Source: Acidimicrobiia bacterium (GTDB taxonomy: Bacteria; Actinomycetota; Acidimicrobiia; Acidimicrobiales; AC-14). From it: DNA of 64,000 bases. The position numbers were made by a program, and so were the translations under genes. Positions 39,647 to 47,587 of this stretch are shown here, piece by piece. Numbering within the stretch: the stretch's first letter is position 1; each line of letters opens with the position of its first letter. Below the pieces are notes generated by a model, which was given only the letters and a program-made list of their open reading frames with translations, did not search any database and was not told where the DNA came from. The stretch is from the NCBI GenBank assembly GCA_023265045.1, contig JAHFUQ010000003.1:30995-94994 (forward strand), given 5' to 3'.

Positions 39647-39862
39647 ATGTGCCGCAGCATCATCACCCTACGGGGATCGGAACGGGCAAGCGAGGAGGAG
39701 ATGCGAGCCGCCGCCCTCCAGTTCGTGCGCAAGGTCAGCGGCTACCGCCAGCCCTCCAAGGCCAATACCGAGACCTTTCAACGAGCGGTCGACGAGATCA
39801 CCGACTCCGTGCAACGGTTGCTGGACAACCTCGCCCCCGTGCGGGGGCCGGCGGGGCCCTAA
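39647..39862 (+). CDS. DUF2277 family protein
   Basis: MCRSIITLRG..EEEMRAAALQFVRKVSGYRQPSKANTETFQRAVDEI; 71 aa. Confidence 0.8.
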   Translation: MCRSIITLRGSERASEEEMRAAALQFVRKVSGYRQPSKANTETFQRAVDEITDSVQRLLDNLAPVRGPAGP

Positions 39863-42492
39863 CTCGCCTGCTGCGACTGCGGCTCCGGGGGTTGCGGCGG
39901 CTTCTCCGGTGGCGGCGACCACGTCAGCAGCCGCTTCCCGTCGGGCGCGAACGTCACCCCCCGCCGGCGGGTCCCGAACGCCGGGATGGTGCACACCGGG
40001 TCTTGATTGCCGAGGGCCCAGACGGAGACGACACCGTCCTCGGTCGCGGCCGCGATTCGGTCGCCGTACGGGGAGACGGCCACGGCGGCGACGGCGCCGG
40101 GCGAGCGGAACGTCTCCCGCAACCCGCTGGGACCGCCAATCCAAACTCCGGTGTCCCGTGATCCGGACTCGAAGTCGGTCACCCCGACAAGCCGTCCGGA
40201 CCGGTCCCCGGGCAACGGGACAACCGCGACCTCGGCGTGAAGGCCGCCAAACTCGACCGCCTCGCCGCCACCCGTTTTGCGCATCGCGACCCGTCCGTCG
40301 TGCGACGCGTACGCCACCGATGCGCCATCCGGAGAGAAGCCGCCGAAAGCGACGGGTTGGCCGAGCAACGCCAGCTTGCCGGGGCCCTCGCTGACGGCGA
40401 GGGTGACCAGGGCGCCTTCGCCGTTCTCGTCGGTGGTCATCCCGACATCGGCGATGGGCGACAGGGCCAGGATCGGCGCCCGCTGGTAGAAGGTGTTCAG
40501 CATGCGGCCGGTGGCGAGGTCGTGGGTGAGCACCGCGCCGCCCGACACCGAAACGATGCGGGCGCAGTCAGGTGAGACGGCAACCGCCGACACGGCGCCG
40601 TCGTGGCCGTAGATCGTCAACAGCTCGTAGCCGGTGGAGACGTCCCAGACCTTCAGCGTCCGGTCGGCCGAGCCGGTGACGACGCGCGTGCCGTCGGGCG
40701 TCCACGCCGCCGCGGTGACTCGGCCGGTGTGGCCCTCGAACCCCACGAGCCGCCAGCCGGTGGCGATGTCCCACAGCTCGGCGGGCCACACCCGCGTCAT
40801 CGTCAGCCCGGGGTGCCCGAAGAACTGGAGCGTGAAGCCCGCCATCTCGCCGACCGGCGACGACCGCACTTGGCGGAGCACCTCGGCTGCTGCCACCCCA
40901 CCAGGGAGCGCTTTTTCGTAGAACTCCTCGCCGACGCCTGCCATGCGGTCGGCGGCGGCCACCCAGCGGGCGACGATTGCGCCAACCGCCCCGCTCGTGA
41001 GCCGGCTCTGAGCCGAGAAGACCTGGAAGGGCTCGTCGAGGTACGTGAATTGGGGCCGGACCGACGCGGTCGCGCCGCCCGCACCCGCGCCCAGGTGCAG
41101 CAGGTCGGTTTGGCGCATGGCCTTGGAGGGCTCGGGGTTGACCGGGAAGGCATCCCACCCCGAGACGATCGCCTCGGTCACCGGGCCCCCGGCGTACCGC
41201 ATGTCGTCGATCGCCAGGTCGAGGGGCAGCGGCAGGGGCTGGCCAGCCAACCAGTGGGCGACGGCCGCCTGGGCGCCCAGGAATGGCGGGCCGTCTGGGA
41301 ACAGCGGCTCGCGCAGCGGCACGAGCTCCCACGGGAGGGGCGGATAGTCGGCGACGACGAGGAGGCTCGGCGGCCGGCCCGTCCCGCCTGTGAAGGCGGC
41401 CCGTTGCAGGACGTCCCAGAACACGCCGTCCTCCATCGCCCGGCCCAGGGCCTCGCCCACCTTGAACTGCTCGTTCAGCGACGACGCCGAGCGGCTCATG
41501 GCGACGACTTCCTCAAGGTCGAGGGGCAGGCCGACCACGGGGCCTGACTCGAGGTACGGCGACGTGATCGAGAGCTCGAAGCCGCCGTCCGGCGGGCGGA
41601 CGAGGTCGAGGCGGATGTCGATCTGCGGCACGACCAGGCGGTGCGAGGCGCCGAGGCCGTCCTCGACCGCGACGTCGCCGGCCGCGTCGACGACCCGCAC
41701 GTCGCCGTAGCGCAGGGCCACGGTGCGGGGCATGCCGTTGTCGTCCGCACCCGACACGCGCAGCACCAACGCGTCGGAGGCCGGCACGGAGATGCGGTGG
41801 GCACGCGGCCGCGGCGGGTAGGTCAGTTCGACCGCCCCCTCGAACAGGCGAAGGCCAACAGCCGCCTCGGTGATGTCCTCGGGGAGGACGGCGGCGAGGC
41901 GAGCGGCCGTCCCCGGCGGCGGATCGCCGGCCAGGACGCGCCGCCCGCCGATCCGCGCCCCCGCTCCCATCGCCAGCAGCCATGCGGCCTGTGACGACCG
42001 GACATCCTCGGGCAGGCGGGGCACGGCGCGCGCCGCCCACCGGGCCACGTTCGCCCCCTGGTCCGGCGCACCGACCATGGCCTTCACCGCCGACAGCAGC
42101 TCGCGGTCCACTTCCTCCTCGCCGCCAGGCCGGGCCGACAGCCATGCGACCCGCTCCTCGAGCTGCACCGCGGGCGGCGAGCCCCTGTGCATCCGCTCGG
42201 TCAGCGCCCACGCGTCGGCGAGCACCTGCGGGCGGGCCGCAAGCCGCCCGCGCAAGACCTCCGCCACTTCCGCGCCGAGGACGAACCCCAACGGGCCGCG
42301 CGACTCGACCAGGGGGCTCCACCACAGGTCCGCCTCCGCGGAGACGTCGACGTCGGGCAGCAGCGCCAGGCGCGCCGCCCGCAGGAGCGCGGGCTCGATG
42401 TGGACCGCCAACGACACCACTTCGGCGAGCGCGGCGACGCCGGCGCGCTCTCGCGCCACCGCCCCAACCAGGGCGGCGGCCGGCGTCGTCAC
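39859..42492 (-). CDS. Large protein: helical N-region + CHAT-like domain lacking the His/Cys dyad + WD40 repeats
   Basis: GTG 42492 overlaps the upstream stop (GTGA). The 5' 219 codons of the 1096-aa ORF are Arg/Pro-rich, overlap the neighbouring gene, and were rejected. CHAT-like motifs: SLLVVADYPPLPWELVPL, DLLHLGAGAGG, QVFSAQSRLTSG, EEFYEKAL. WD40 motifs: GHTGRVTAAAWTPDGTRVVTGSADRTLKVWDV, GHDGAVSAVAVSPD, EDGVVSVWAL. Confidence 0.75.
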   Translation of the reverse strand: MTTPAAALVGAVARERAGVAALAEVVSLAVHIEPALLRAARLALLPDVDVSAEADLWWSPLVESRGPLGFVLGAEVAEVLRGRLAARPQVLADAWALTERMHRGSPPAVQLEERVAWLSARPGGEEEVDRELLSAVKAMVGAPDQGANVARWAARAVPRLPEDVRSSQAAWLLAMGAGARIGGRRVLAGDPPPGTAARLAAVLPEDITEAAVGLRLFEGAVELTYPPRPRAHRISVPASDALVLRVSGADDNGMPRTVALRYGDVRVVDAAGDVAVEDGLGASHRLVVPQIDIRLDLVRPPDGGFELSITSPYLESGPVVGLPLDLEEVVAMSRSASSLNEQFKVGEALGRAMEDGVFWDVLQRAAFTGGTGRPPSLLVVADYPPLPWELVPLREPLFPDGPPFLGAQAAVAHWLAGQPLPLPLDLAIDDMRYAGGPVTEAIVSGWDAFPVNPEPSKAMRQTDLLHLGAGAGGATASVRPQFTYLDEPFQVFSAQSRLTSGAVGAIVARWVAAADRMAGVGEEFYEKALPGGVAAAEVLRQVRSSPVGEMAGFTLQFFGHPGLTMTRVWPAELWDIATGWRLVGFEGHTGRVTAAAWTPDGTRVVTGSADRTLKVWDVSTGYELLTIYGHDGAVSAVAVSPDCARIVSVSGGAVLTHDLATGRMLNTFYQRAPILALSPIADVGMTTDENGEGALVTLAVSEGPGKLALLGQPVAFGGFSPDGASVAYASHDGRVAMRKTGGGEAVEFGGLHAEVAVVPLPGDRSGRLVGVTDFESGSRDTGVWIGGPSGLRETFRSPGAVAAVAVSPYGDRIAAATEDGVVSVWALGNQDPVCTIPAFGTRRRGVTFAPDGKRLLTWSPPPEKPPQPPEPQSQQAS

Positions 42493-43454
42493 GAGCCCAC
42501 CACCTGGCGGACCACCCGCACGCTCGTGGACCGGTCCCAAGGGATCACCGTGATCGCCCGGCGCAGAGCCGGCGGCACCCGCGCCGCGGGGTAGGGGACG
42601 AACGCCACAAGCGGGCACCCGGCCCTGCGCACGGTCGCCGCGAAGTCCTCCCATTCCGCCGCCGTCGCCCGCTCCGGCGATCCGGTCTCCACCAGGCCGA
42701 GGTCGGAGACGACGACCACTGGGCGGCCGCGGCGCGGCGGCTCGTACCCGATCCACGTCGCCCGCGACTTCGGCCCCGTACCCCGCGAGGGGCAGCCGGC
42801 GAAGCGGAGCACCTCCACCTGGTCGCGGCCGACGAGGGGGACGGCGGCGTCGACGATCTGGCGCTGATCGCCCCGGAACGCCAGCATGCCGTCGCCCATG
42901 TCCAGCAGCACCTGCGCGCCGAACCGGTTCGTGGGCCACGGCAGGCGCGGCAGTTGTTGCAGCGGGCGTCCGGCGGCCAGGTCGTCGACGGCCCGCTCGA
43001 CGTCGAAAGGACCGTCTTCGCTCCGGGTTGCCACCGCCGCGGTCAGGATGCCGCGCGCCCAGCGCGGCACGAAGAGGGGTTCGAGCGCGGGTGGCGGAGC
43101 CACCGGCCCGGCCGGCGCGTCCGCCAGTGCGTCGACTTCGGCCAGCCACGTGGCCGTGCGCCGGGTGGCCGACCGGCTTGCCACCGGCTCGAGCGAACTG
43201 GCGAGCGCCTCGTCGCCGTGCTGCGAGGGGGCCTTGCCACCGAACTGATCGGGCTGCTCGACGTCGCCAGCCGTGGGGTCGCCGGCGTCGGGCGCCGCGG
43301 CTGGAGTCGTCGGCGACACGGAGGGCTCCCCCGCCGGGGCGGGGGGCGCCCGTAAGCCGAGGACCACGGCGATCCGGTCCAGCGTGTCCTGGTCGACGGG
43401 ATGCAAAGCGCCGGCGGCGCGGAGGAAGTCGCCGATCGAGATCTGCGGCAGCAG
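42489..43454 (-). CDS. vWA-like protein with degenerate MIDAS (start uncertain)
   Basis: A high-GC3 frame begins right after the stop at 43472. Candidate starts are CTG 43454, TTG 43406, GTG 43367 and ATT 43508. The core QVLLDMGDGM ... RPVVVVSDLGL resembles vWA beta1/beta4. Confidence 0.55.
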   Translation of the reverse strand: MLPQISIGDFLRAAGALHPVDQDTLDRIAVVLGLRAPPAPAGEPSVSPTTPAAAPDAGDPTAGDVEQPDQFGGKAPSQHGDEALASSLEPVASRSATRRTATWLAEVDALADAPAGPVAPPPALEPLFVPRWARGILTAAVATRSEDGPFDVERAVDDLAAGRPLQQLPRLPWPTNRFGAQVLLDMGDGMLAFRGDQRQIVDAAVPLVGRDQVEVLRFAGCPSRGTGPKSRATWIGYEPPRRGRPVVVVSDLGLVETGSPERATAAEWEDFAATVRRAGCPLVAFVPYPAARVPPALRRAITVIPWDRSTSVRVVRQVVGS

Positions 43455-44461: not shown

Positions 44462-45547
44462 TCAGGTCCTCCCTGCACCGCACGCGCGCTTGGCGTCGCG
44501 TAGGGCGCGGTTGATGTCCCGCCAGTACGCGGCTTCGCGCGCCGGGTCCAACTCGGGAACCACGTAGTCGACGTCGGGGAGCGCCAGCGCCGCGAACTCA
44601 GGGCGGGTCATCTCGCCGGTGAGGAACAGGAAGCTGACCTTGGCGTAGCCCTTGGCCCGGATGGCCTGGAGGTCGGCGGCGGTGGGAACCGGCGGCGGGA
44701 ACACGAGCACGACGGGCAGGGCGCTGAGCTCTTCGTCCAGGTCCTCGGGGGGGAACCCGAGCGCCTCTTCCACCGCGCTGGCCACGCGTTGCTCGAGGTC
44801 GGCGAGGTCGGGACCCCAGCCGCCCGGGACCTCCTGCACGCCCCACATCGGGGGCGCCCAGCACGCGGCGCCGGTCACCATTCGCCCCGTCTCGGTGCGC
44901 GCCGACTTGACCCCGAGGCCGCGCCGCGACGGCACGGCGTCGCGAACCAGGGCGACCGCGGCCTGATCGATGCACGCGAACGGCGCGGCCACGGTGACCA
45001 CGGCGCCGGCCCGCTCGCACAGCTGTGAAGACAACGCCGTGACGGCCGACACCAGCGTCTCCAAGTCGGTCTCCAGCAGCCTGCGCGCGAGCACCCAGCG
45101 CATGTCCTCCTCCGTGCCGCTGAGGACGACGCCGAGGATCTCCCCGGCCTCCTTGTAGAGCCCGACGTCAGCGCCCTTCAGCAGCCCGGCAAGCTGACCC
45201 TCGACGTGGTGGCGAGGGGTCTTCTCCACGATCTGGACGGATGCCGCCGGGCTCGCGGCGACGGTGATGTTGAAGATGTCGCCACCGGCGACGTCGCCGA
45301 CGTTCACCGAGCCCGCAATGGCGCCCTTGAAATCCACGACGGCGCGCCCGACGCTGACCGCCTTGGCGCCGACCAGTGCCTCGATGAGCTCGGCTTCGGC
45401 CGCGAGCGCGTCCTTCGCGGCTTCGGGGGTGGTGCCGCCATTGGCGAGGTCGGCGACGATCCGCGCCAGCGTGGGGACGCGCCCCTTGAGGGCCGGCGGG
45501 GCCGCCCGCTCGAGGACGGCCTCGAGGTCCGACGAGGAGACGGTCAC
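44462..45547 (-). CDS. Hypothetical protein sharing a Gly/Val-rich ~34-aa motif with the upstream caspase (adaptor candidate)
   Basis: GTG 45547 overlaps the caspase stop (GTGA). Helical N-terminus of about 60 aa, motif VDFKGAIAGSVNVGDVAGGDIFNITVAASPAASV, then an alpha/beta-like C-terminal domain. No family recognised. Confidence 0.7.
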   Translation of the reverse strand: MTVSSSDLEAVLERAAPPALKGRVPTLARIVADLANGGTTPEAAKDALAAEAELIEALVGAKAVSVGRAVVDFKGAIAGSVNVGDVAGGDIFNITVAASPAASVQIVEKTPRHHVEGQLAGLLKGADVGLYKEAGEILGVVLSGTEEDMRWVLARRLLETDLETLVSAVTALSSQLCERAGAVVTVAAPFACIDQAAVALVRDAVPSRRGLGVKSARTETGRMVTGAACWAPPMWGVQEVPGGWGPDLADLEQRVASAVEEALGFPPEDLDEELSALPVVLVFPPPVPTAADLQAIRAKGYAKVSFLFLTGEMTRPEFAALALPDVDYVVPELDPAREAAYWRDINRALRDAKRACGAGRT

Positions 45548-46788
45548 CCGTGCGTGCGGGCCCGCTGCAACAACACGCCCACGGCGTCGCTCAACGTCTC
45601 CGGCGCGCCCATGGCCAGCAACGCCCGCTGCGCCGAGTCCAACTTTTCGAGCATGCGCCGGTCGTCGCCCGCGTCGCCCGCCTCCTTGGCCTTGCGGAGG
45701 TCGTCGGCGGCGTCCTCCTGGCGGCCTTTCTGCGCGGCTGGCGCGGCGAGGCCGGCGACGTCGGCCCGCGCCCCGGCGATGGCGGCGAGAAGGTCGGCGC
45801 GGCCCGTCACCGCCGCCGCCGCAGCGGGCGTGGTCGTGATCTTCACGATGTCGCGCCCGGCCACGTCGCCCATCGTCACCGAACCGATCGTCGCACCCTC
45901 GAACGACACGACGCTCGTCTTCTCGACAACCGCCACCGGGAACGTCTCCACGGCGCCGTCAGGGAGGCTCTGACGTATGGCCGGCGCGCCGAGGGCGGAC
46001 CGGTCGACGATGCCGTCGCCGAAGAACGAGACCGCGAACGGGCCCACCCCTTCGGACAGGTTGAGGACGGGCTCCTGCGCGACCCGCAGCTCGGCCGCCC
46101 CCGCGATGACCGTCTTGTACAGGTACTCGTATAGCTCGAACAGGCCGACGTAGCCCGGACGGTCCATGCCCTTGCCTCGCAGCCCGTCGATGAGCGCCTG
46201 CCCGAACAGCGTCGTCGGCGCCTGCGGCCGGTAGTACGACGACTGCGTGGCGCGCGCCGCGGTGATGACGGCCCGGCCCTCGCCGCTGGCGAGCACGCGG
46301 GCGCTGAGAGCGGGCGTCGGGGGAGCGCTCTCGGCCCCCAGGGTGGCGTGGATCTCGCCCGACAGGCACGCGTTGATGACGAAGAGGAGCTTGCGGGCCT
46401 TGATGGCCCGCAAGGCGGCCAGCAGCGCCGGCTCGCCCAACCCGGTCCCCTGCAGCGCCAGCTTCCCGGGGCTGAACTGGGTGTCATGGGTCGCCAGCGT
46501 GTACTGCCCGTCGTCGCCCGGGACCCCGTGGCCGGCGAAGAAGATGAGCACGACGTCGTCGGCGGTCGCGCGCGCCGCCAGGTCGGCGAAGGCGTCGTTC
46601 ACCGCCTCGAGCACGGCGCCCTCGTCGTGCAGCAGCCCGACCTGGCCGGCCGGATAGCCGGCGACCTTCTCGTCAATGAGCGCGTCGCGCACTCCTGTCG
46701 CATCCCCCACGGTGATGGGAGCGCTCCACCCCGGGGCCTGGTACTGGCCCACTCCGATCACCAGCGCGTGGCCTTCCGCGAACGCCAT
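45544..46788 (-). CDS. Caspase-like (peptidase C14) protease with C-terminal Gly/Val-rich motif and helical tail
   Basis: HALVIGVGQY start of the domain. Catalytic contexts VVLIFFAGHG (His) and LLFVINACLSG (Cys). Alternative GTG start at 46818. Confidence 0.8.
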   Translation of the reverse strand: MAFAEGHALVIGVGQYQAPGWSAPITVGDATGVRDALIDEKVAGYPAGQVGLLHDEGAVLEAVNDAFADLAARATADDVVLIFFAGHGVPGDDGQYTLATHDTQFSPGKLALQGTGLGEPALLAALRAIKARKLLFVINACLSGEIHATLGAESAPPTPALSARVLASGEGRAVITAARATQSSYYRPQAPTTLFGQALIDGLRGKGMDRPGYVGLFELYEYLYKTVIAGAAELRVAQEPVLNLSEGVGPFAVSFFGDGIVDRSALGAPAIRQSLPDGAVETFPVAVVEKTSVVSFEGATIGSVTMGDVAGRDIVKITTTPAAAAAVTGRADLLAAIAGARADVAGLAAPAAQKGRQEDAADDLRKAKEAGDAGDDRRMLEKLDSAQRALLAMGAPETLSDAVGVLLQRARTHG

Positions 46789-46846: not shown

Positions 46847-47587
46847 GTGGCAGGCCCAGAGATCACCAAGCAGCCCCAGCGCCAGACCGTCGCCGCCGGC
46901 ATGCCGGCGCGCTTTGAGGTCGTCGCCACCGGCGCCACCGAGTATGCGTGGGCGAACGAGGCGGGACCGATCGCGGGAGCGACATCGGCCACCTATGTCG
47001 TCACCGCGACGGCCGAGCTTTCCGGGACGAAATACCGCGTCACCGTCAAGAACGCGGCCGGGGAATCACGCATCAGCGACTGGGCGACGTTGACGGTCGC
47101 CGCCGAGGTTCCCGTCGTCTACGAACCGCGGTTCGCGGCAGTCGCCGCGGCCGCCTTGCTGGCGACCTTCCTTGTGGTCCTGTGGCCGATCTGGGCAATC
47201 GCCGGGCGGGTCGCGTTCAACAAGAACGTGAGCTTTCCCGCGGTCATCGCCGTGCAGCTGGTGATCGTCGGCGTGCTGATCGCCCTGGCCGGCGTGTACC
47301 TCTCGCTGCTCGAGTTCCGGGGCCGGGCCCGCACCATGGCCGAACTGCGCCCGCCCGCCGGTCCCGAGGCGGCGGCCGTCGGGGACCTCGGCGCGGTCGA
47401 CGAGGTCGCCAAGTCCATCCCCGAAGCCCTCAAGGCCTTCGGTCAGCTCAAGGCGCCGGCGGCCGCCATGGCCGTCGCCGCCCTGCTGTTCATCTGCGCG
47501 ACGGCGATCTCGTGGCGCGGCCTCCCGTCGACGTCCTCACCAACCGCCCCGACGACCACAGCCGCGCCCACCACGACCAAGCCATAA
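46847..47587 (+). CDS. Membrane protein with N-terminal Ig-like domain
   Basis: GTG 46847. PEITKQPQRQTVAAGMPARFEVVATGATEYAW...GTKYRVTVKNAAGESRISDWATLTV, then 3 TM helices and a Thr/Pro tail. Divergent from the caspase operon. Confidence 0.65.
   Translation: MAGPEITKQPQRQTVAAGMPARFEVVATGATEYAWANEAGPIAGATSATYVVTATAELSGTKYRVTVKNAAGESRISDWATLTVAAEVPVVYEPRFAAVAAAALLATFLVVLWPIWAIAGRVAFNKNVSFPAVIAVQLVIVGVLIALAGVYLSLLEFRGRARTMAELRPPAGPEAAAVGDLGAVDEVAKSIPEALKAFGQLKAPAAAMAVAALLFICATAISWRGLPSTSSPTAPTTTAAPTTTKP

Follow-up and report, generated by a model that had tools for sequence, protein, structure and literature searches.

The window analyzed here, a stretch of 64,000 nucleotides (G+C content 72%) from contig JAHFUQ010000003.1 of an Acidimicrobiia bacterium, carries on its minus strand a five-gene operon that encodes a caspase, a partner protein, a MoxR-like ATPase, a 305-aa protein and a WD40 protein. 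The caspase and the partner share a motif, and this relationship is real. The most likely role of the motif is to attach the caspase to a bacterial immune complex of the MoxR type. The shared part is a glycine/valine/aspartate-rich strand motif of about 35-45 residues. The principle, in which a duplicated adaptor recruits the effector and its target is an NLR or the third component of a MoxR–vWA system, is known; the motif and the module that contains it form a family outside Pfam and NCBIfam.

An earlier reading of the window, hereafter the original prediction, had quoted one motif peptide from each protein, and translation of the minus strand at 45808-45909 and 45236-45337 reproduced both peptides exactly (Table 1). 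They align without gaps with 20 of 34 residues identical (59%), in agreement with the approximately 60% that had been given. The similarity at the DNA level was also found, although with 65 identical positions out of 102 (64%) it is slightly under the claimed 70%. When the whole caspase and partner were compared by BLASTP, a single significant segment was obtained (E 3e-7, 20/36), the other segments being noise. A profile of the partner N-terminal module matched the caspase at profile positions 65-104 only, and the caspases in general at ~60-104, which correspond to the motif and exclude the helices, with E-values from 4e-8 to ~1e-9. Both comparisons confine the homology to the motif, and the remainder of the two proteins is unrelated, as had been proposed. 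Chance resemblance of the two copies is ruled out by the E-values and by the conservation described below. Within the 64 kb, neither a regular expression nor a profile hidden Markov model (HMM), applied to all six frames, detected a third copy, the next-best HMM match having E = 2.

The original prediction had also described an element V(A/Q)(V/I)VEKT adjoining the motif in both proteins. The heptapeptides are indeed present, as VAVVEKT in the caspase (45916-45936) and VQIVEKT in the partner (45218-45238), but not as one shared element. Since they are located on opposite sides of the motif, N-terminal in one protein and C-terminal in the other, and since the corresponding positions in orthologous loci read h-h-D-x-x-K in the caspases and h-x-I-G-E-x-T in the partners, they are two distinct elements whose resemblance in the window is incidental. 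Being neither colinear nor conserved, they do not qualify as a further element common to both proteins.

When the partner was used as the query of an exhaustive phmmer search, 81 matches that belong to two classes were obtained. Class i relatives match residues ~108-350 of the partner and are ~400-aa proteins with an N-terminal TIR domain, which is replaced by trypsin in two of them (P0024 and P0038). Class ii relatives match partner residues 3-105, nearly always at their N-terminus, in otherwise unrelated proteins of 133-1445 aa, including NACHT or NB-ARC proteins with TPR, TIR proteins and membrane proteins. The class ii matches indicate that the first ~105 residues of the partner are a conserved module that begins with helices and ends with the motif. 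The motif itself has the consensus [AS][LV][ILV][SD]-F-G-x-G-[SA]-Q-x-G-D-V-[ST]-I-G-D-V-A-G-[GR]-[DN]-[IV]-[IV]-K-h-x-h, with F, A and G invariant in 39 aligned modules, and its core consists of three successive GD[VI]xx units with hydrophobic strands on both sides. No match to the module or motif was found in Pfam, NCBIfam, PADLOC or PDB sequences, with Pfam and NCBIfam thresholds as loose as E ≤ 10 or ≤ 1, and the motif family was not found in the literature searched, core heptapeptides included. A genome scan, for which a 7-sequence subset of the 39-sequence module alignment was used, located the module almost wholly in the filamentous Chloroflexales, while a metagenome scan with the partner alignment gave N-module matches alone and no new operons. 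In word-indexed homologue searches the partner found itself alone and the caspase-tail alignment two fragments, Ala-rich words having probably saturated the list of candidates.

The structure predictions are consistent with the limits of this homology. AlphaFold2 models were based on alignments 59 sequences deep for the partner and 29 for the caspase. In the partner, the bundle formed by residues 5-58 (predicted local distance difference test, pLDDT, ~90) and the alpha/beta domain formed by residues 113-358 (>95) are separated by the motif region 71-110, with a pLDDT of 49-63. Similarly, the caspase has a confident catalytic domain and a confident tail (330-413), while residues 291-310, in the motif, reach a pLDDT of 35-37. 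The motif is predicted to be disordered in isolation in both proteins, and its low pLDDT between confident flanks fits a segment that folds only upon binding.

The original prediction had named as its counter-case a larger globular domain common to both proteins, and no such domain was found: the homology ends at the motif edges, and the motif region is unfolded in both AlphaFold2 models while its flanks are confident. These observations make it very improbable that the motif is a remnant or a part of a bactofilin- or pentapeptide-repeat-like globular domain inherited from a common ancestor, with copies that do not interact. The periodicity of GD[VI]xx does recall the pentapeptide repeats, and longer periodic G/D-rich stretches surround the motif in some Chloroflexales caspases. 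However, about three units do not complete even a single coil, neither pentapeptide nor bactofilin models of Pfam matched at E ≤ 10, and simple common descent leaves unexplained the pairwise and locus-specific similarity that is presented in the following paragraphs.

The order of the operon is kept in four more independent loci (L003, L004, L005 and L007-9), L003 being a partial contig with the first three genes alone. The MoxR gene follows the partner gene in 5/5 loci. Matching motifs are retained in both genes of all five operons, with signs of co-variation, a point that the original prediction had proposed to check in orthologous loci. Among the 120 permutations of caspases and partners, the true pairing gave the top summed similarity, with a mean identity of 0.55 vs 0.47; the test was made on a 29-column motif alignment with n=5 loci, for which the top rank is the best attainable result. 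Moreover, the modules of the partner family have (V/I/L)DF, as do the caspases, whereas most other (NLR-type) modules have ISF.

Adjacent motif genes also form clusters elsewhere, namely a pair (L010), a triple (L025) and a quadruple (L038). In L010, a NACHT protein with transmembrane segments stands beside a P-loop STAND-like protein, which appears NB-ARC-like by eye and has no Pfam match. The L025 genes encode a small module-only protein, a NACHT–FGE-sulfatase protein and a NACHT protein. In L038 (860-13347; GCA_037025645.1, JBAIHA010000137.1), a 1596-aa STAND protein, the caspase P0093, a 1073-aa P-loop protein and an NB-ARC protein all bear the module or the motif. The L038 caspase and the STAND protein upstream of it both have GDVVGG, where GDVAGG is found in 39/39 aligned modules. 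The same caspase has QSRKVIDFGSG in common with the two downstream proteins, in which an insert lies between the helical part and a caspase-type extended motif. Recent gene conversion was considered for these within-locus similarities and rejected, since the DNA identity is 64% in the window and just 48-67% in L038. This pairing behaviour is that of the published effector-associated domains (EADs), and equally that of amyloid signalling motif pairs.

A proteolytic explanation was also considered, in which an Asp of GDVAG(G/R)D would be the point of cleavage by the caspase, in its own chain, freeing its helical tail, as well as in the partner, removing the N-terminal bundle. The caspase is nearest to the EACC1-associated type, and cleavage of EACC1 by its protease was shown in vitro, Asp49 being modelled as the putative site (bioRxiv 10.1101/2025.11.14.688446). 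In addition, the motif offers three Asp positions and, in the models of both proteins, belongs to a disordered linker that joins folded parts. None of these Asp is invariant, however (D in 31/39, D in 30/39, and D26+N11 of 39), N occupies Asp positions in several caspases, and the invariant F, A and G point to packing rather than to a P1 site. A conserved block of 30-40 aa with hydrophobic strands is also far longer than a cleavage site, and the motif is present in the adjacent NLR-like genes of the L010 and L025 stretches, which have no motif-bearing caspase homologue. We therefore regard a cleavage site as an improbable function of the motif.

The genes downstream of the partner connect the operon to a known type of system. 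Published TERNS3 systems comprise a 5' gene in which TERNS3-N and TERNS3 are preceded by TIR or, more rarely, by a peptidase or EAD1, followed by MoxR, vWA and vWA-L plus effector genes; the operon strings given there include trypsin fusions and beta-propeller effectors (PMC8195603). Direct tblastn of the partner against plasmids gave no match, and P0037, a TIR-fused class i relative (similarity to the partner 2.4e-6), served as a bridge. With P0037, tblastn identified the Streptomyces plasmid locus L037, the match to its TIR protein having an E-value of 1e-12. L037 has the order SLATT – TIR protein – MoxR – 318-aa protein – vWA-L/TPR/CHAT. The 305-aa protein of the window is homologous to the product of the L037 gene after MoxR (Table 1), and the first 275 aa of the 877-aa WD40 protein share 34% identity (E 1e-23) with the N-terminal part of the L037 CHAT-TPR protein. 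Because the downstream genes are homologous to those of L037 and the L037 layout matches the published TERNS3 strings, the operon can be read as a TERNS3-type MoxR–vWA system in which the new module takes the place of the usual fused TIR. The C-terminal domain of the partner would then most likely be TERNS3-N + TERNS3. By its position and the published TERNS3 gene order, the 305-aa protein is a putative vWA component. The MoxR/vWA operon with a non-NLR partner that had been put forward is borne out with respect to the MoxR gene and to the partner, which has no NTPase domain, but the vWA is assigned by position, with no direct match. When the model of the partner C-terminal domain was compared with the PDB by Foldseek, no significant fold was found, the best E being 0.05 with weak AAA+/ORC/NLR-like matches. 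Ten TIR-fused relatives, looked up by exact match, yielded no NCBI accession that could be set against the published TERNS3 table.

Taken together, these features suggest that a homotypic adaptor of the EAD type, hitherto without a name, interacts through the motif as its core and tethers the caspase to the TERNS3-like third component, and we consider this reading rather probable. According to the EAD principle (Kaur et al. 2020, PMC7159879; 2021, PMC8195603), which extends to the TERNS3 systems that the operon resembles, a duplicated small adaptor couples an effector or signalling enzyme to the MoxR–vWA third component, and the exchange of enzyme for adaptor at the terminus of the core protein is a defining EAD trait (PMC7159879). 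Such an exchange was observed here, as the position of the module is taken in most relatives of the third component by an N-terminal TIR or trypsin (the latter in P0024 and P0038). The EAD arrangement is likewise present, with one copy on the terminus of the third component and another on the caspase of the adjacent gene in five loci. An EAD-like resemblance of cognate copies was also found, the true pairing being the best of 120 (n=5 loci, a small sample) and L038 having its own GDVVGG and QSRKVIDFGSG variants. Consequently, the context that had been claimed as new is only partly so: adaptor coupling to a MoxR–vWA third component is already published, but the motif family and its use in bringing a caspase to a TERNS3-like protein are new.

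What the analysis establishes is homology, domain architectures, gene order, conservation in pairs and predicted disorder; binding, its stoichiometry, the activation step and the substrates are inferred, along the following lines. The two disordered motif segments would pair as beta strands, so that the caspase is tethered to the complex. The WD40, vWA-L and TERNS3 parts may detect an invader, upon which the MoxR ATPase would remodel the complex. Oligomerisation of the complex would gather the caspases, which could then be activated by proximity (cf. CARD–caspase-9 and BCL10–MALT1) and cleave downstream targets.

Several observations weigh against this assignment. Published EADs are much larger than the shared piece, for which disorder is predicted and not a small globular fold; compared with a small folded non-enzymatic domain, as expected of an adaptor, the motif is small and non-enzymatic (~40 aa) and has a pLDDT of 35-63 in both monomers. 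No Pfam EAD or bDLD model matches the module or motif. The TERNS3 identity is founded on the architecture and on a chain of moderate E-values, i.e. 2.4e-6 and 1e-12 for the steps through P0037, and hhalign E 1.7e-3 at a probability of 16% for the colinear but weak match between the partner family and the C-terminal part of the L037 TIR protein. In the case of the 305-aa family, neither Pfam nor PDB sequences gave a direct vWA match. Finally, the pairing test includes n=5 loci, and phylogenetic or compositional co-drift could contribute to its signal.

The upstream protein is a caspase, as had been stated. It matched PF00656 (Peptidase_C14) with E 6e-7 and the NCBIfam model caspase_w_EACC1-like under the cut-off of that model; the His87/Cys141 dyad, intact here, is nearly invariant in 29 caspase homologues, and Foldseek placed the model nearest to GSU0716, MALT1 and metacaspases. 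Most of the 36 caspase homologues have the arrangement caspase – beta-rich spacer – motif – Ala-rich linker – conserved helical tail. The caspases carry the motif alone, followed by their own helical tail, and the helical part of the module is absent. The tail is conserved throughout the family, the homologues ending in ...LSDAVGVLLQRAR, and has no relation to the partner. Several motif-caspases are orphan genes, at least one of them in Oscillochloris sp. ZM17-4, the genome of which also encodes another motif protein.

In one caspase homologue, P0105, the motif layout gives way to the Pfam domain PF19971 ('Ternary complex associated domain 2'), which ties the caspase family independently to MoxR–vWA ternary systems.

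Table 1. Features of the caspase operon in the window (positions in the 64,000-nucleotide stretch)
Feature	Position	Strand	Location or sequence	Basis or remark
Caspase gene, 414 aa	45544-46788	(-)		First gene of the five-gene operon
Caspase (Peptidase_C14) catalytic domain, His87/Cys141 dyad intact	46021..46773	(-)		Pfam PF00656, conserved H/C columns, Foldseek
Caspase motif copy	45808..45909	(-)	V294-V327 of 414-aa protein; VSFEGATIGSVTMGDVAGRDIVKITTTPAAAAAV	Translation, module-HMM match
Caspase C-terminal four-helix tail	45550..45801	(-)	Residues 330-413	AlphaFold2 pLDDT 85-98
Partner gene, 361 aa	44462-45547	(-)		Directly downstream of the caspase gene
Partner N-terminal helical bundle	45374..45535	(-)	Residues 5-58	AlphaFold2 pLDDT 87-96, four helices
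Partner motif copy	45236..45337	(-)	V71-V104 of 361 aa; VDFKGAIAGSVNVGDVAGGDIFNITVAASPAASV	Translation; C-terminal part of the N-terminal module
Partner C-terminal alpha/beta domain	44474..45211	(-)	Residues 113-358	pLDDT >95; most likely TERNS3-N + TERNS3
MoxR-like AAA+ ATPase, 329 aa	43472..44461	(-)		Pfam AAA_5 E 8e-13, bpMoxR 28.8 bits
305-aa protein, putative divergent vWA component	42489..43406	(-)		40% identical (E 3e-39) to the gene after MoxR in Streptomyces L037
877-aa protein, vWA-L-like N-terminus, then WD40 beta-propeller repeats	39859..42492	(-)		WD40 matches; homology to the L037 CHAT-TPR protein

The original prediction itself had tentatively suggested that the two proteins are an amyloid or prion-like signalling pair, a mechanism for which HET-S/NWD2 and Bab/Agp (BASS) provide the templating parallels. 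The activated partner, or an NLR encoded elsewhere, would convert its own motif to a rung of cross-beta or beta-solenoid type, on which the caspase motifs would be templated into open-ended polymers, so that the caspase is switched on. We regard this as possible but doubtful. An effector gene and the receptor gene beside it have a short motif in common, disorder of this motif is predicted for both monomers, and its composition (G 16%, V 13%, I 11%, K 2.4%, P 0.5%) is amyloid-motif-like, BASS motifs being reported as rich in G/V/I/N/Q and poor in K/P/L. The three GD[VI]xx units with their flanking hydrophobic strands could make one beta-arch rung, which would need stacking partners. In the relatives, the motif is found near the N-terminus of NACHT/NB-ARC proteins of filamentous bacteria, within the first 35-120 residues in some, and BASS motifs on CHAT, TIR and hydrolase effectors are already known.

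Classical amyloid signalling motifs are terminal, however, whereas those of the window are internal, 70 residues from the partner N-terminus and 87 from the caspase C-terminus, and stand beside conserved folded helical bundles. No likeness to the published BASS clusters was detected, as stray, non-alignable core-pentapeptide matches in C02 and C06 alone were obtained in what is a weak test, and the literature searched did not contain the core heptapeptides. The receptor of the window is not an NLR, each motif has several conserved acidic residues, and no obvious pseudo-repeat was noticed on the effector side, where none was specifically searched for. Hence the matched pair, its pairwise conservation, the disorder, the composition and the NLR N-terminal relatives all speak for what had been predicted, while the BASS cluster match and the terminal position were not found. 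In its full form the amyloid proposal, to which we attach the same low likelihood, would make the motif a new amyloid-type family with one GD[VI]xx beta-arch or solenoid rung per molecule that folds by stacking, and STAND sensors and the TERNS3-like machine would activate caspases by templated polymerisation. If true, it would mean that filamentous bacteria connect immune complexes gated by an AAA+ chaperone with a prion-like transmission of the signal.

Some further observations concern the module family. In Chloroflexales, a second conserved element, TGGGDYAEG[NS]IDKR[KRQ]G, occurs at a variable distance after the motif (L014 834-2546, L016 7734-8600, L017 6951-8282). It is carried by caspases, a small stand-alone protein, at least one NLR-type module protein (P0054) and the short protein P0020, and is absent from the caspase/partner pair of the window. 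As this element follows the motif, the shared region is longer in Chloroflexales and possibly includes a second rung. The motif is also located in the middle of ~300-aa P-loop ATPases that are AAA_16/AAA_22-like (L015 3437-4384, L019 414-1556, L021 7554-8561). In L036 (1-8031), the gene of the NB-ARC/TPR protein P0046, which has an N-terminal module, is preceded at a distance of ~3.7 kb by neighbouring genes for MmeI-type restriction-modification and for Mrr restriction, a defence-island context that fits an immune role of module-bearing proteins.

Two further observations were made on the neighbouring genes of the operon. In the 877-aa protein (39859-42492), ~300 unannotated residues without Pfam match separate the vWA-L-like N-terminus from the WD40 part; its Streptomyces counterpart ends with TPR+CHAT. 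Divergent from the caspase gene, a gene at 46847-47587 (+) encodes a 246-aa protein in which an Ig-like domain and 2-3 transmembrane helices are recognized by eye. A homologue is found at the same place and in the same orientation in L004, L005 and L007, i.e. in four loci with the window, and the family has the common core ...LPFIGGGWG...GVL.GQAIAGLYG.L.GYLFG. This membrane protein may be a sixth component or an effector, in the place that SLATT takes in the related Streptomyces loci.

The module family represents an unannotated and widespread connector of caspases, TIR proteins and NLR-like ATPases in the filamentous Chloroflexales and in this high-GC contig, and concerns the wiring of bacterial cell suicide and immunity. 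A profile of the module would annotate the blank N-termini of many predicted immune proteins. For TERNS3-type MoxR–vWA systems, we propose that the caspase is recruited in trans, as opposed to the fused TIR. As a short, conditionally folding beta segment and not a helical death-like domain, the motif also stands between two separately developed ideas, the effector-associated domains of Aravind and the amyloid signalling motifs of Saupe and Dyrka, and offers a test case for whether the two mechanisms differ.

Compared with known systems, the caspase/partner pair resembles the EADs (EAD1-12 and bDLDs; PMC7159879 and PMC8195603) in the N-terminal copy on the third component and the second copy on a signalling peptidase, the gene of which is adjacent. 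As with those EADs, some versions of the core protein have a fused TIR or trypsin where others have the adaptor, cognate copies are more similar to each other than non-cognate ones, the genomes also contain additional and orphan copies, and the family is enriched in filamentous bacteria. It differs from them by the absence of any sequence match to Pfam EAD/bDLD models, by a shared part that is ~35-45 residues long, beta-prone and predicted to be disordered where EADs are small folded (mostly helical) domains, and by adjoining helical bundles that are not the same in caspase and partner.

With the TERNS3 system (PMC8195603), the operon shares the succession third component → MoxR → separate small 'vWA' gene → vWA-L + effector repeats. 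Its third-component relatives are ~400-aa TIR fusions or ~485-aa trypsin fusions, and its downstream genes are 34-40% identical to those of the Streptomyces SLATT–TIR–MoxR–vWA–vWA-L+CHAT locus. In contrast, the N-terminal partners named in parts 5-7 of the published table are TIR, trypsin, transglutaminase, EAD1 and 'bcl2?', the module and an upstream motif-caspase not being among them, and the window has the divergent Ig-like membrane protein instead of a SLATT gene.

The amyloid motifs (BASS1-11, HRAM/HET-s and PP/RHIM; Dyrka et al. 2020, bioRxiv 10.1101/2020.01.06.895854; Ibarlosa et al. 2024, bioRxiv 10.1101/2024.11.07.622273) are similarly short, G/V/I-rich, K/P-poor and disordered as monomers, with effector and receptor encoded side by side; an NLR-like N-terminal site in the relatives, an occurrence in multicellular bacteria and known non-Bell effectors, including the caspase-like CHAT, add to the likeness. 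The motif described here is nevertheless unrelated in sequence to the published clusters, is internal between folded helical bundles and has a non-NLR receptor. In animals, the death-fold adaptors of the CARD–caspase-9 apoptosome and of BCL10–MALT1 use a six-helix death fold, and the caspase or paracaspase is activated by proximity. By analogy, the bacterial motif would be a homotypic adaptor that takes a caspase-fold protease, with a catalytic domain near that of MALT1, to an NTPase-regulated platform; it is a short beta motif and not a six-helix fold, so that the resemblance to the animal adaptors is one of analogy alone.

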